A stretch of DNA of 64,000 nt from positions 100,531-164,530 of the forward strand of contig JBAZLL010000001.1 of the NCBI GenBank assembly GCA_041650255.1, given 5' to 3'. This document shows positions 5,941 to 10,833 of this stretch, one piece after another. The position numbers were made by a program, and so were the translations under genes. Position 1 is the stretch's first letter. Each line of letters begins with the position of its first letter. Origin of the DNA: Candidatus Micrarchaeia archaeon (lineage in GTDB: Archaea; Micrarchaeota; Micrarchaeia; Anstonellales; Anstonellaceae). Below the pieces are notes generated by a model. It made no database searches and had not been told where the DNA came from. It saw nothing but the letters and a program-made list of their open reading frames with translations.

Positions 5941-7061
5941 TGAAGATCCAGTTTAATGTAGTAATCTTAGCCTTGCTTTTCATATCTAGTGCATTATTTT
6001 GCGCAAATACACATATTATGAGCTACCGCACAGACCCTTCCACGGTTCGGGCAAATCAGGATTTTACCTTTTTCTTCACTCTCAAAAATGACATGGAAAT
6101 CGGGATTGACAACATCAACATTTCATTTGAATGCCCTAACAACCTAACCTGCCCATCTTACATATTGATGAACCTTCCCTCATACGGCACCCAAGAGATC
6201 ACGGTTCCAATAAAAAACGACGCGTCGGGCGGGCTTAATCAAATAAAAATGAGTTGGAAGGACGGCTCGTACAACATGGGCGTGGATGCAAATGAAAATC
6301 CGACCTCAACTCCCAAAATCCTTAGCTCCACCTTTCCGATTCTCATGCACGAATCAGCAATAAGCCAAGTAAACGCAACAACGAGCTTGGACTTCAACCG
6401 CAAAAACAATTTCAGTGTGCAATTACAGGCGACGGATTTGAATAACATACGAATCTCGCTTTATTCCTCTTGCATGGCGTTTGAGAGCCCAATATTTTAT
6501 TTCCCCTCAATAAACGGAAGCGCAAACATCAGCACCTCTGTATTCGTGAATTGTGCCCCCGGCTCCGCAGATTTGTCCCTTACCCTACAATCTGATGAAC
6601 TTACCTATCAAGTGCCGCTTGGTGTTTTCGTGCAAAAAACCCCACAGTCAAATCTTGATGTGGAAATATTGTCTCCCTCAATTCAGAGCTCAAAGGACAA
6701 TGTGCAAATAAGCGTTTCAAACAACGGCGCACCTGCTGAAAAACTTTATCTTAGCATACTTTCAAGTCCATCAGTGCGCTCTCCGGACATGCTGTATATG
6801 GGAGATTTTAGCGGAGAACGCCTTGAATACATGGAGATTCAAGCGCAGGAGACAGGAGATATTCCAATAACAATCGAAGCTCGTTGGATTGAAAACCACC
6901 AATCATTTACCAAAACCTGGCAACAAATAATCAAAGTAAAGCAAAGCCAGCCCCAAAATATCCCATCTTCATTCTATCTTGCGGCGGCCGCGGTAGTGAT
7001 ATTATGCATCGTCTGGATGACATACTCAAAGACCTCAATACCATTTTTCAAAAAGGGATAA
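5940..7061 (+). CDS. secreted, C-terminally anchored surface protein (repeated beta-sandwich, S-layer/CARDB-like)
   Basis: Signal MKIQFNVVILALLFISSALFCA, C-terminal TM FYLAAAAVVILCIVWMTY. Sits in an operon between the PadR and YhgE-like genes. Confidence 0.55.
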   Translation: MKIQFNVVILALLFISSALFCANTHIMSYRTDPSTVRANQDFTFFFTLKNDMEIGIDNINISFECPNNLTCPSYILMNLPSYGTQEITVPIKNDASGGLNQIKMSWKDGSYNMGVDANENPTSTPKILSSTFPILMHESAISQVNATTSLDFNRKNNFSVQLQATDLNNIRISLYSSCMAFESPIFYFPSINGSANISTSVFVNCAPGSADLSLTLQSDELTYQVPLGVFVQKTPQSNLDVEILSPSIQSSKDNVQISVSNNGAPAEKLYLSILSSPSVRSPDMLYMGDFSGERLEYMEIQAQETGDIPITIEARWIENHQSFTKTWQQIIKVKQSQPQNIPSSFYLAAAAVVILCIVWMTYSKTSIPFFKKG

Positions 7062-8830
7062 TGAGTGCAGGCCTGCTTCTGGTTCCAGCATTGGTTTTTC
7101 TTCTTTATGTCGGCGCTTTTTACCAGCCGATGGAAAATGCTCGCAACACCGAAGTATTATTTGTAAATCTTGACGGCGGCGAGCTTTCCCAGGCGATTGA
7201 ATCTGCAATACTTTCAAGCGGTGTGTATAATTTCAAAACAGCTTCCCTTGATTATGCGACCACCGAAGTAAACGAAGCTCGGGCATGGGGCGCGCTGATA
7301 ATCCCTGCAGGCTTTGAAGATAATCTCCGTTCTGGAAACGGGGCGGAAATAATCCTATTGGCGGATGATTCCCGTTCATACATTATCTCAAGGACAATGC
7401 AACCCACGATAATGGTTCTAAGCTCAAGACTTCAAGAACAGATTCTGCAAAATGCGCTTGATTCTGCCGCTTCCGGAATGGATGCGGCGTCGAGGCAGGA
7501 GGCATATAGCGCTCAGTCTCTTCAGGCACTATCTGCCGCATCCTCTCAATTGAAAGAGGGGCAGTCCGATTTGATTTCTGCAGAATCAAAAATGTCTGAT
7601 TACGGGCAGGAGCTAACGAGCTCCAATCTAAAACTGCAAGCCAATCTGAAATCTTCGGTGCAAGCTGGCAGGGCACTCACCGATGGGGCAGGGCAACTTC
7701 GGGACGGGGCAGGCACTCTTTCTTCCGGATTGCTGGTTTTGAACAACGGCACAACCCAATTACTGACAGTGAATTCAAAGCTGAATAATGTCCTTGCAAG
7801 CGCATATGCTTCCGCCCAATCAATCCCAGATGGGGTCGCAAGAAATCAGACGATTTCTCTCATCTCGTCTGCACAATATTTGTCTTCTGCGCAAAATTCC
7901 GGATTACAATCATTGGATTCCGGGACAAAAACCGCCTATTCCGGTAGCCAGAAACTATATTCTGGATTGGGCACTCTTACAAACGGATTAGGCACATTGA
8001 GCGACGGGCTTATACGCATAAAACAAGCACAGCTTCTTTCAACCGCATCAATTGCGGATTTGGCACTAAATACAAAGACAATATCAACGCTTTCCAAAGA
8101 TTTGGAATCCGGAATTGGGCAGGTCGGCTCATCTCAGAGTTTGCTTGCAGACAAATCCTCTTCCCTATCTTTCGCTCTCTCAAGCGGTTCTGACCAGCTC
8201 GGGCTCGGAGGCATAAATCTTAGGATAGTAGAAGCAAACTATGCGGATTACGGCACATTTTTTGCAACTGCATTTGTTAGTCTCGGGCTTTTTTTCGGGG
8301 CGGCTTCTGCCTATATTTTCTGCTCTTTGAGCAAATTGCGCCATCCTACAATATGGGCCTTCGGATTTGCGATATTGCAATCTGTGATTCTGATTTGTGT
8401 TTATGCCCTAATGTCTTTTCCAATGCGCTCCGGGGAATACTCCCTTCTTGCAATTATGCTGTTGTCTTCACTCGTGTTTTTGCTCATGACTCGCGCGTTA
8501 GTGAGAATAGTGTCCCCAATATTCGAGGCGCATCACCTCTCATTATATTCTCCAATTCTCTCTCTTTTGGCAGTATTCATGATAAGTTCAGGAGGAGCAA
8601 TGTGGCCTCAGCATACCCTGCAGGCACCATTCAATGTATTCACTCCCTTTATTCCGATGTATTATAGCGTCTCCGCAACTCGTGCAAGCGCACTCGCCGC
8701 AGTCTGGCCATCTTCTGATTTGAGGGTGTTGGTCCTTTCATGCGCTTTTCTCTGGATTTTGGTCGAATTGGCAGACCATTTCCGCCCTAAGATAATCTCG
8801 CATTTTTTCAAAAATAAATATAGTGTTTAA
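7004..8830 (+). CDS. YhgE/Pip-domain integral membrane protein
   Basis: 608 aa. N-terminal TM plus VLFVNLDGG, then central degenerate repeats (LTDGAGQLRDGAGTLSSGLLVLNNGTTQL; SGSQKLYSGLGTLTNGLGTLSDGL), then 5-6 C-terminal TM helices. Alternative start at 7061. Confidence 0.7.
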   Translation: MHRLDDILKDLNTIFQKGIMSAGLLLVPALVFLLYVGAFYQPMENARNTEVLFVNLDGGELSQAIESAILSSGVYNFKTASLDYATTEVNEARAWGALIIPAGFEDNLRSGNGAEIILLADDSRSYIISRTMQPTIMVLSSRLQEQILQNALDSAASGMDAASRQEAYSAQSLQALSAASSQLKEGQSDLISAESKMSDYGQELTSSNLKLQANLKSSVQAGRALTDGAGQLRDGAGTLSSGLLVLNNGTTQLLTVNSKLNNVLASAYASAQSIPDGVARNQTISLISSAQYLSSAQNSGLQSLDSGTKTAYSGSQKLYSGLGTLTNGLGTLSDGLIRIKQAQLLSTASIADLALNTKTISTLSKDLESGIGQVGSSQSLLADKSSSLSFALSSGSDQLGLGGINLRIVEANYADYGTFFATAFVSLGLFFGAASAYIFCSLSKLRHPTIWAFGFAILQSVILICVYALMSFPMRSGEYSLLAIMLLSSLVFLLMTRALVRIVSPIFEAHHLSLYSPILSLLAVFMISSGGAMWPQHTLQAPFNVFTPFIPMYYSVSATRASALAAVWPSSDLRVLVLSCAFLWILVELADHFRPKIISHFFKNKYSV

Positions 8831-8922
8831 ACCGAGGACACGCTGAGGCCCAAAACCTTCGGTTTTGAGCATTCTGAATGCTTCGCATTCAGTCTCCCCA
8901 AGTCGCTTATGCGACTTGAGGA

Positions 8923-9098
8923 CGCCGAGGGGGAGATTGCCAACCGCAGTTGGCAAGATTTGGTGCGAAGCACCAAACCCCTGAAGGCGTGAGTAAAACG
9001 AGCGCCGAGGGGGAGATTGCCAACCGCAGTTGGCAAGATTTGGTGCGAAGCACCAAACCCCTGAAGGCGTGAGTAAAACGAGCGCCGAGGGGGAGATT
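8923..9098. repeat. exact 80-bp tandem repeat (2.2 copies) whose unit begins with the last 16 nt of tRNA-Ser
   Basis: cgccgagggggagatt starts at 8923, 9003 and 9083. The intervening 64 nt are identical in both units. Each unit holds two perfect 8-bp hairpins. Confidence 0.9.
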
Positions 9099-9169
9099 TG
9101 AACTCCCGAAGGGATTTCTCCCAAACAGGTTAGCAACCTGCCGCAATAACCAGGCTATGCGACCCCAGC
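9083..9169 (-). tRNA. tRNA-Ser(GCU), type II with long variable arm
   Basis: Hand fold: GCTGGGG/CCTCGGC acceptor (two G-U pairs), D stem GCA/TGC, anticodon stem GCAGG/CCTGT, loop TTGCTAA, variable arm GGGA-GAAA-TCCC, T arm GGGAG-TTCAAAT-CTCCC, discriminator G. Confidence 0.85.
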
Positions 9170-9173
9170 AAGA

Positions 9174-9200
9174 CCCTTTTCTTTTAGGAAAAGAAAAGGG
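9174..9200. repeat. perfect polypyrimidine/polypurine palindrome CCCTTTTCTTTT-AGG-AAAAGAAAAGGG
   Basis: 12-bp stem, 4 nt upstream of the tRNA-Ser 5' end. A near-identical copy lies at 32335-32365. Confidence 0.85.
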
Positions 9201-9276
9201 TTCTATCCTAAAAGAAAAAGAAACTTATCTATTTAGCCTCTTTATCCTTTTAAATTAAATCAGCCGAATATCCTCA

Positions 9277-10833
9277 ATGAAAAACCTTCCCTGGTGGCTA
9301 AAGCTCGAGCTTCTTTGCGCCATCTTGCTTCTCATTCCAATATGGCATTTTGCATATCTTCCCCTAAACGATTTGCCAAACCATCTTGCAAGCGTTCATC
9401 TGCTTTTGCAATATTATTCCGCCCAACCAACCTATATTGAGCCAAACCAAAACTTTTTCACCGGCAATTCATCCGCCTTTATCTTTTTGCAAATATTCGG
9501 GCAAGCATTCGGGCTAACCACCGCCGCAAGAATATTGCTTAGCATAATAATTTTACTAATGCCCCTTTCCCTTTCATGGTTTTTCTTCTCAATTGACAAG
9601 CGCCTTGCCCCGATGGGCATTGTGGGATGCGCAATAACCTATAATTGGTTTTTTGTAATGGGCTTTTTGAATTTTATTCTGAGTATCCCACTGTTTTTCT
9701 TTGCCGCAGGCACATGGCTCTTTATCCGGGAAAAGAAAGCGAGCGCAATAGAGCTTGCAACTTTTGCAATTCTCTCCCTCCTTCTTTTATTTACTCATCT
9801 ATTCGGAGCCGCCGCGCTTTGCACTCTCATGGTTTCAAAAATTGCATTTGATTTTTTTGCATCTGGCGCAAAGTTTTCAGATCCAAAGAAAATTCAAACC
9901 GCAGATTTATTCGCAATCCCGCTTGCACTAATATGCCTCGCATTTGCATTCATATATCTTTCCGGCGGCGGGCAAAGCAGCATAATCTGGTCATCTGCTC
10001 AAGACATCGCCTATCTTTTTGTGTTATATCCGCTTTCTCTTCTGCTTTATTTGTGCATAATCGTTCTTGCAATTTATGCATTTTTAGACAGAAAATCATT
10101 CGAAATTACTAATTGCAAAACAGCGCTCTTTTGGGCATCGGAGGGCATTCTCTTCTGCATTTTTGCAATAATTTTTCCTCTAAGCACCCAAAGCTGGCAA
10201 TTTATTTCCGTGCGCTTCTGGCCTTTTGCATTGATATTTTTCTTGACAGCATTTTTTTCATTAATTTGTGGTTCCAAACGATTTGTGAAAGAGGTGTTTG
10301 TCGCATTTTTCGTATTCTCCCTTATCGCGGGCGCATCGGTATTCTTTGGATGGGAAAGCATGCAAACTCAAATAGCGGATATTGTAAATGCAGGAAATAA
10401 TTTCCAAAGCAATTCGTCCGTATTTGCATTCGGGCGGGGATTTGCAAAGCTTGCACCAATCGGTCCGCCGAGTTCATTGCTTCATACCCCCGGCTATTGG
10501 GTGATTGAAAAAGATATTTACTATCCATATCTTTTCTCCGGAGATTACAGCCCTATAGAGTACAAAAATTCAAGCGAGCATGGAAAAGAGCAAATGTCCG
10601 TTCTGCTTGATGATTTGGCGTATGCAGTATTTTCAAAAGAAGCAGGCGAGAGCGAATGTGTTGCCTGGAAACAATACTACCAAAAAATAAATTGGACCAT
10701 TTTGTGTGCAGAATATGATTATCTCGCTTTCAGAGAGAGCAATTGCGAAGACGAGCTAACTTTTTCGTCTTGTTTTGAGCAAATTGAGGCAAAGCCGCCT
10801 CTTTACATTTACAAAAATATAGAGAAGAATTAG
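9277..10833 (+). CDS. polytopic membrane protein, possibly a GT-C-type glycosyltransferase
   Basis: 518 aa with about 12 predicted TM helices followed by a soluble C-terminal domain. The function is inferred from architecture only. Confidence 0.35.
   Translation: MKNLPWWLKLELLCAILLLIPIWHFAYLPLNDLPNHLASVHLLLQYYSAQPTYIEPNQNFFTGNSSAFIFLQIFGQAFGLTTAARILLSIIILLMPLSLSWFFFSIDKRLAPMGIVGCAITYNWFFVMGFLNFILSIPLFFFAAGTWLFIREKKASAIELATFAILSLLLLFTHLFGAAALCTLMVSKIAFDFFASGAKFSDPKKIQTADLFAIPLALICLAFAFIYLSGGGQSSIIWSSAQDIAYLFVLYPLSLLLYLCIIVLAIYAFLDRKSFEITNCKTALFWASEGILFCIFAIIFPLSTQSWQFISVRFWPFALIFFLTAFFSLICGSKRFVKEVFVAFFVFSLIAGASVFFGWESMQTQIADIVNAGNNFQSNSSVFAFGRGFAKLAPIGPPSSLLHTPGYWVIEKDIYYPYLFSGDYSPIEYKNSSEHGKEQMSVLLDDLAYAVFSKEAGESECVAWKQYYQKINWTILCAEYDYLAFRESNCEDELTFSSCFEQIEAKPPLYIYKNIEKN

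Follow-up and report, generated by a model that had tools for sequence, protein, structure and literature searches.

At the tyrT/tyrV locus of Escherichia coli, tandem repeats give rise to a processed RNA, rtT, the function of which is poorly understood (10.1101/2024.07.17.603846). On re-reading this locus, the last 19 nt of the tRNA were found six times, closing each of the 178-bp units (3.1 copies), and the unit contains GGGGAAGGAT, the complement of ATCCTTCCCC, together with an internal hairpin. An archaeal tRNA-Pro is the target of a casposon, which enters at its 3′ end; the T-loop region sets the position of the resulting 15-bp duplication (PMC5137440). The locus considered here is an exact tandem repeat directly behind the tRNA-Ser(GCU) gene of a Candidatus Micrarchaeia archaeon, lying within a window of 64,000 nt (positions 100,531 to 164,530 of contig JBAZLL010000001.1; all positions below are numbered within this window). 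It is one locus of a multi-copy family of short modules that are located behind many different tRNA genes in a class of Micrarchaeota. A literature search found no published description of such modules, and the family is apparently undescribed.

Each module comprises an insert of 64–66 nt followed by a direct copy of the 3′ end of the preceding tRNA (T), and the insert holds an inverted copy of the same end (T′). The likeness to E. coli rtT (gene rttR; RF00391) is one of design and not of homology, with tandem units behind a tRNA that carry a copy of its 3′ end and an inverted partial copy. The E. coli repeats differ in being bacterial, in having a unit of 178 nt with CCA and a small open reading frame (tpr), and in occurring at a single tRNA locus; the RtT model RF00391 gave no match in 8000–10000 at E ≤ 1. 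With tRNA-targeting integrative elements and casposons the modules share insertion at the 3′ part of the gene that restores the tRNA and displaces a partial copy, a duplication of ∼14–15 bp starting beside the T-loop, and possible tandem accretion. They differ from these in that the insert is gene-free and contains an inverted copy of the target, and no larger parent element was found in phage, plasmid and viral collections. Casposon-type terminal inverted repeats are lacking as well, since CTCGTTTT... at one end of the insert is not matched by an inverted copy in ...GGTTGGC at the other.

Repetitive extragenic palindromic (REP) sequences, bacterial interspersed mosaic elements (BIME) and the palindrome-associated elements derived from IS200/IS605 are likewise short, multi-copy, non-coding intergenic hairpins with structure conserved more than sequence, in which a segment 5′ of the hairpin foot pairs with the cleavage or target site. 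In the modules, by comparison, the pairing segment is 4–12 nt long and matched to the local tRNA, the target is duplicated, and the IS200/IS605 transposase domain PF01797 is absent from the richest genomes. The modules do not form a classical miniature inverted-repeat transposable element, since their sole inverted repeat (T′/T) copies the target and so differs at every tRNA. Lastly, there is a likeness to the non-canonical tRNA introns, and to intron transposition, of archaea with a splicing endonuclease of broad specificity, where hairpin cassettes lie in and around tRNA genes (see loci L072 and L076 below). The modules of the window differ from such introns in lying after a complete tRNA, so that no splicing is needed. 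A reading of the modules as bulge-helix-bulge splicing substrates was rejected on inspection of the folds (no dedicated search for this motif was made), as the bulges are not conserved. The motif calls for two 3-nt bulges with a 4-bp helix between them; the window unit offers only one such bulge (TTC) next to a helix of 4 bp, with no second bulge in register, and the closing stems of a module on contig C8 of the same genome and of locus L078 are uninterrupted over 7–11 bp.

The repeat and its family

The repeat occupies positions 8923–9098, with a period of 80, 2.2 copies, 100% matches, no indels and a score of 352 in Tandem Repeats Finder (TRF); the 2.2 copies are a lower bound taken from the assembly, because perfect tandem repeats can collapse during assembly. 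The last 16 nt of tRNA-Ser(GCU), AATCTCCCCCTCGGCG in the tRNA sense, are found as the plus-strand sequence cgccgagggggagatt at 9083, 9003 and 8923. The exact 80-bp repeat seeded by the tRNA 3′ end that was described in the initial annotation is thus confirmed, and comparison with the array of a sister species corrects the length of the copied segment proper from 16 to 14 nt (T60–G73); the two extra A's of the seed belong to the foot of hairpin 2. No further copies of the unit beyond these two were found in its own genome by BLAST. The individual features are listed in Table 1.

A single unit folds as a Y, in which a closing stem of CGCC/GGCG and AGGGG/CCCCT surrounds two perfect 8-bp hairpins. 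The minimum free energy is −35 kcal/mol, compared with −18.8 ± 2.7 kcal/mol in 200 shuffled sequences (z = −6.0), none of which equalled it, in agreement with the three-way fold that had been proposed for each unit. The units score as neither tRNA gene nor pseudogene, both ARAGORN and the Rfam tRNA model matching 9083–9169 alone. A scan of 8000–10000 against Rfam (cmscan, E ≤ 1) returned only the tRNA and three chance matches.

The sister species (genome G002; genomes carry G-numbers, the window's own being G000, and loci L-numbers) provides a second array at the same position. Two public-metagenome contigs together comprise tRNA-Ser(GCU), a two-unit array and then a homologue of the open reading frame (ORF) at 9277–10833. 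The T′, T and TTC bulge are the same as those of the window. Hairpins 1 and 2 both differ from their counterparts in the window, and hairpin 2 differs between the two units of the array. Since the sister species has non-identical units behind the same tRNA, two-unit arrays are judged from these sequences to be real and old in the genus, and the identical units of the window point to recent duplication or homogenisation. Both contigs of G002 break inside the array, and assemblers therefore struggle with such arrays.

Two covariance models were used to follow the family, R1 built from 11 Ser-type units and R2 being a broader model. R1 matches 28 of the 42 genomes of the family Anstonellaceae, in six of its seven genera, with highest copy counts of 19, 15 and 11 per genome and many tandem pairs. 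At the level of the order 34 of 121 genomes are matched by R1, and R2 matches 22 of 301 genomes in a phylum-wide sample, without exception from one class. The distribution within the window's own genus is patchy, with 5, 7–8 and 5 copies in three genomes and none in two more. When 60 relatives were searched at the DNA level, matches behind the tRNA-Ser genes of other genera covered the spacer and not the tRNA alone. In the richest genome, G024, modules are located behind Ser, Leu, Gln, Thr, Arg, Gly and other tRNAs.

The window's own genome (1.05 Mb in 22 contigs) gives a further measure of this association. The last 13 nt of the tRNA recur (≤2 mismatches) within 300 nt downstream for 9 of its 44 tRNAs, where 0.19 would be expected from mismatched pairs, i.e. 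when the tail of one tRNA is sought in the trailer of another. An architecture like that of the window is present in the trailers of an Arg-like tRNA on C8 and of Gly-GCC, Gly-CCC, Glu and Ser-UGA.

Searches beyond the related genomes were largely empty. An exact 40-nt piece of the unit had no match in metagenome contigs or viral contigs, and the two units had none among phages and plasmids by BLAST. A degenerate 20-nt pattern matched 38 stretches, of which two are real modules, both from the array of the sister species.

Architecture, covariation and probable transcription of the modules

The anatomy of the modules was derived from 17 loci of G024 and 65 aligned matches. Starting from the tRNA end and reading in the tRNA sense, the strand passes through a linker, continues as T′, forms hairpin 1 and then hairpin 2, and finishes with TC followed by T. 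The linker is pyrimidine-rich and ∼13 nt long with the rough consensus CTCACTTCGTTCG, and is at times the loop of an AT-rich hairpin. T′ is an inverted copy of the last 4–12 nt of the tRNA, discriminator base included. Hairpin 1 has a conserved foot TTTTG...CAAAA(T/A)C, and hairpin 2 comprises 8–11 bp of variable sequence. T is a direct copy of the last ∼14 nt of the same tRNA, so that T and T′ vary with the tRNA (Ser, Leu, Gln, Thr, Arg, Gly, Pro and others). For about 44 of 59 model matches, an exact or one-mismatch 12-mer of the match's own 3′ end is located 0–105 nt upstream. Identical subtypes of hairpin 2 are found behind different tRNAs of one genome, as in G024, where CCGTACAAC...GTTGTCCGTC is shared by modules behind Ser, Thr and Arg tRNAs.

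The possibility that T′ is a copy of the tRNA 5′ end, as would be left by a decayed tandem tRNA gene, was rejected: the pairing of T′ extends into the T-stem portion of T, and there the sequence of the tRNA 5′ end is different (L078, AGCCTCCGATG compared with CATCGGAGGCT, and L074). In a genome of the same genus as the window (G001; L004/L036) the orthologous tRNA-Ser(GCU) has no module. Its trailer carries the linker motif alone, as the loop of an AT-hairpin (AAAATTTA-TTCGCTTCGCTCA-TAAATTTT).

The base pairing of the modules is general in the covariance-model alignment. Standard pairs fill 92.5% of the pair cells, compared with 68.3% on shuffling and 37–44% with slid partners, and double changes are found in 233 cells compared with 58 in shuffles, all figures that are somewhat inflated because the alignment was fitted to the model. 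Compensatory changes occur in all four helices. They include the closing stem T′/T, which is 90.7% paired with compensatory changes at four of the four modelled pairs, figures subject to the same inflation.

The composition of the stems is symmetric between the strands. Watson–Crick pairs account for 1005 of 1099 pair cells, with 12 G·T and 20 A·C, and the modules fold equally well when read from either strand. For the tRNAs of the window's own genome, the acceptor and T stems contain 24 G·T and 4 A·C, a rough control in which some tRNA ends are off by one. Because G·T does not exceed A·C and the antisense folds equally well, the hairpins therefore behave like strand-symmetric DNA palindromes, and less like typical selected RNA.

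Archaeal RNA polymerase terminates at oligo-T, not at hairpins. Of 54 modules, 3 have a run of four or more T in the linker and 32 have one within the 30 nt past the module; for five or more the corresponding numbers are 1 and 18. With oligo-T runs lying past the modules, and archaeal termination using such runs, we infer that transcription most probably continues across the modules, which would then belong to the tRNA trailer. In the window the first T4 run past the array is the end of the hairpin at 8851–8867, and the first T5 run lies farther on, at the stop codon of the convergent gene. When a precursor of 330 nt was folded the tRNA cloverleaf survived, with the modules folding separately.

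Occupied and empty sites, introns and surroundings

In one genus (g3) the site between tRNA-Ser(GCU) and the downstream gene can be compared between orthologous loci. It is empty in G012 and filled in G016 and G021, and the indel corresponds exactly to the module with T.

Module copies without an adjoining tRNA are found at L069, L073, L075 and L079. At L069 (G024:C7:33192-34073) the module is located within an open frame, ahead of the conserved region of a ScpA-like gene. An in-frame position inside this gene was considered and set aside, the upstream region being likelier as the conserved part of the protein starts downstream. The sequence before the L069 module, GATCTCCTCCTCGGC, is similar to the 3′ end of a tRNA-Ser. 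At L077 (G024:C12:1-543) the module adjoins the 5′ end of tRNA-Pro(UGG) in antisense orientation, with a 15-nt duplication, which is the antisense of tRNA nucleotides 1–12 plus 3–4 flanking bases. Attachment is therefore not limited to 3′ ends or to the tRNA strand. A mirror version is located 5′ of tRNA-Ser(GCU) in another family of the order (f7; L013 and L011), where the order is a copy of the 5′ end (TGCTGGGGTC), a hairpin, the complement (CCCCCA..), a linker (ATTCGCTTACGCTCA in L013) and then the tRNA.

Two loci of G024 carry hairpin inserts within a tRNA gene. In L072 (G024:C2:21634-22707) a cassette of hairpin 1 and hairpin 2 occupies positions ∼401–500, in the anticodon arm of the tRNA (loop CTTGTAA), flanked by the 13-nt direct repeat TTGCCTTGTAAGC. 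This looks like an intron made by insertion of the cassette with duplication of the target. In L076 (G024:C5:12516-13358) tRNA-Gly(GCC) has a hairpin insert of ∼44 nt in the T-loop (TTCAAA|...|ATCCCGG) and a degenerate module downstream. Since the T-loop insert has no duplication it is likely to be a non-canonical intron.

Introns are present in many of the tRNAs of the window genome, which marks it as archaeal, and the nearest relatives of its FtsZ are from metagenome-assembled genomes of Candidatus Micrarchaeota. A second hairpin family, polypyrimidine/polypurine palindromes of the form CCCTTTTCTTTT..AAAAGAAAAGGG, is found in most of these introns and directly before or after many tRNAs of that genome (e.g. 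C4:76974-77134 and the regions of C9:25614 and C14:9098). In the trailers of Gly-UCC and Gly-GCC this family resembles the intron of the tRNA-Ser of a relative.

On the distal side of the array the trailer continues as three further hairpins, whose presence, reported in the initial annotation, is confirmed at 8851–8867, 8874–8892 and 8899–8918. The hairpins of 8874–8918 recur with compensatory changes directly behind tRNA-Ser(CGA) in a genome of the same genus (L035, G003:C13:1-1533). From sequence comparison this likeness fits an original trailer that was displaced by the modules, and the hairpin at 8899–8918 is probably part of the original tRNA trailer. The genes neighbouring the repeat encode a YhgE-like protein, FtsZ and a P-type ATPase; the first of these is convergent with the tRNA, and the Pfam assignment in Table 1 agrees with its earlier identification. 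Three minus-strand ORFs over the repeat had been regarded as artefacts; none matches a Pfam family and all overlap the tRNA and the repeat. In the sister species (L120/L123) and a farther relative (L021), tRNA-Ser(GCU) (plus array) is followed by a same-strand homologue of ORF 9277–10833. In the window this ORF is upstream and divergent, and the segment of tRNA plus array appears inverted relative to it.

Table 1. Features of the tRNA-Ser(GCU) locus, with positions numbered within the window
Feature	Position	Strand	Basis
tRNA-Ser(GCU), CCA not encoded	9083..9169 (start 9082/9083)	-	ARAGORN; Rfam tRNA model 46.9 bits, E = 2.3e-8
Repeat seed T, last 16 nt of tRNA-Ser(GCU)	9083-9098	-	Sequence
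Module 1, adjoining the tRNA	9003..9082	-	Sequence, fold, model R1 (93.5 bits)
Module 1 linker, CTCGTTTTACTCA (tRNA sense)	9082-9070	-	Sequence
Module 1 T′, CGCC-TTC-AGGGG, inverted copy of the tRNA end	9069-9058	-	Sequence
Module 1 hairpin 1, TTTGGTGC-TTC-GCACCAAA	9057-9039	-	Sequence, fold
Module 1 hairpin 2, TTGCCAAC-TGCG-GTTGGCAA	9036-9017	-	Sequence, fold
Module 1 direct copy of the tRNA end	9018/9016-9003	-	Sequence
Module 2, distal, every base the same as module 1	8923..9002	-	TRF, 100% identity
Trailer hairpin, CAAGTCGC-ATAA-GCGACTTG	8899..8918	-	Sequence, fold
Trailer hairpin, CTGAATGC-GAA-GCATTCAG, conserved in L035	8874..8892	-	Sequence, fold
Trailer hairpin, CAAAACC-GAA-GGTTTTG	8851..8867	-	Sequence, fold
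Palindrome CCCTTTTCTTTT-cc-TAAAAGAAAAGGG, 4 nt upstream of tRNA-Ser(GCU)	9174..9200	-	Second hairpin family
ABC-2/DUF3533 (YhgE-like) membrane protein gene, convergent	7004..8830	+	Pfam PF12698, E = 6.8e-11; PF12051, E = 3.7e-6

Possible origin and function of the modules

The family is multi-copy, is found behind many tRNAs with a fixed order of parts and forms tandem arrays; orthologous sites may be occupied or empty, the boundaries falling exactly at T. The explanation that we favour, with a probability of about one half, is that the module is a tolerated mini-element, duplicative at the DNA level, which is transcribed along with the tRNA as part of its trailer and closes on itself, the repeat of the window being a recent duplication by unequal crossover. 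On this explanation a module would arise by DNA-level insertion or duplication at the tRNA 3′ end, duplicating T in the manner of a 14-bp target-site duplication or att core and leaving the tRNA gene intact. Arrays would then expand and contract by unequal recombination or slippage between copies of T, the pair of units in the window being a recent event of this kind. RNA polymerase would read through the module as tRNA trailer, oligo-T runs lying only past it. In the transcript T′ would pair with the extra T, so that the module closes as a Y that does not compete with the true acceptor stem. RNase Z could then release the tRNA, which would explain why such insertions are tolerated. The perfect palindromes may be kept by processes acting on DNA (templated correction of quasi-palindromes, and gene conversion between modules) and not by selection on RNA, and movement may rely on host recombination and replication.

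Several points weigh against this explanation. No transposase or recombinase tracks the modules. Cas1 (PF01867) is encoded in 8 of the 42 genomes with no association, and is absent from the module-richest G024, G027 and G036, which are incomplete metagenome-assembled genomes. The Y1 TnpA of the IS200/IS605 family (PF01797) is found in 12 of the 42, again with no association, and is absent from G000, G002, G024, G027 and G036, where the incompleteness of the assemblies means that absence is not proof. No insertion mechanism is known that would copy its target in inverted as well as direct orientation, as the pair T′ and T would require. The hairpins have been kept folded through many double changes between genera, and modules behind tRNA-Ser persist across several genera, both of which fit a selected function as well. 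In addition, what looks like movement between tRNAs could be the product of gene conversion among modules that are old and vertically inherited. As a separate observation, a Cas1 homologue (239 bits) is encoded in the window genome at G000:C3:21914-22762.

It is possible, rather than probable, that the modules are instead a functional trailer RNA resembling RtT. The Y-shaped RNAs would be cut by tRNA-end enzymes, each module ending in a mimic of the acceptor stem, and would compete with tRNA 3′ ends, or stand in as decoys, for the enzymes or toxins that act there, or tune the processing of their own tRNA. The module lies inside a likely transcription unit, the Y fold is very stable (z = −6) with compensatory changes in all four helices, T matches the local tRNA, and the linker motif is conserved and sometimes displayed as a hairpin loop; moreover the E. 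coli tyrT/tyrV repeats share the design and yield a processed RNA (10.1101/2024.07.17.603846). However, the stems have neither an excess of G·U nor strand asymmetry, modules are patchy within a genus and at orthologous sites, loci hold from zero to three copies, and some copies are located away from tRNAs, antisense to a tRNA or inside one. The closing stem also includes the discriminator base as a paired position, in contrast to a normal substrate of RNase Z or the CCA-adding enzyme. A co-transcribed structured RNA or tRNA-like decoy was among the candidates raised in the initial annotation; co-transcription is very probable, given the position of oligo-T after the modules, and the decoy is weakened because the stems lack the G·U signature of selected RNA.

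A bolder and rather doubtful proposal is that the modules form a new class of miniature mobile elements that recognise the folded end of a tRNA gene, as a hairpin or single-stranded DNA. They would build the inverted and direct copies by structure-specific recombination or template switching, possibly with host-encoded enzymes, and would also land within tRNA genes (in the anticodon arm or T-loop) as introns. Such elements would be a living source of the unusual tRNA introns of DPANN archaea, and possibly of split tRNA genes.

The geometry of the locus also suggested att-like remnants of site-specific integration, and this geometry is real, in that the tRNA end is duplicated and tRNA 3′ repeats of 14–16 nt flank each 64–66-nt insert in the manner of attL/attR. 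That they are scars of larger elements (viruses or plasmids with a tyrosine integrase, or casposons), which would have entered at the tRNA 3′ end on repeated occasions before being lost, is improbable. The arrays do resemble tandem accretion, and the casposon target at tRNA-Pro with its 15-bp duplication set by the T-loop region (PMC5137440) offers a parallel. Against this, the insert is just 64–66 nt, its architecture is conserved across genera and its hairpins carry compensatory changes; an inverted target copy is not expected from an integrase, casposon-type terminal inverted repeats are missing and the richest genomes lack Cas1. A scar of a larger element is thus unsupported, the insert being so short and conserved, and no relatives of it being present in collections of phages, plasmids or viral sequences.

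The packing of seven stem-loops into the space between two convergent genes had prompted the idea of an elaborate bidirectional terminator, or 3′-end structure common to the tRNA and the YhgE-like gene, which is now very improbable, as termination in archaea uses oligo-T runs and not hairpins, these runs are located past the modules and not within them, and the same modules occur behind tRNAs without a convergent gene. That the second unit is an assembly artefact and the true copy number not 2.2, as the exact identity of the two units and the position of the sister array at metagenome contig ends might suggest, is very improbable given arrays of 2–3 units with non-identical members in independent assemblies, and a 176-bp repeat of 80-bp period with no repeated word longer than 96 nt should be resolvable with long k-mers or paired reads.

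Whichever explanation holds, ORFs over modules are spurious, tRNA finders may mis-set the ends of adjacent tRNAs, and assemblies tend to break at the arrays. If the modules are functional RNA, they would be an archaeal counterpart of E. coli rtT extending across many tRNAs. If they are mobile, they are among the smallest elements known, with a targeting logic not described so far in which both strands of the target end are copied in. Such mobility would explain the hairpin-crowded tRNA flanks and introns of DPANN archaea, and would provide a concrete route for the gain of tRNA introns.

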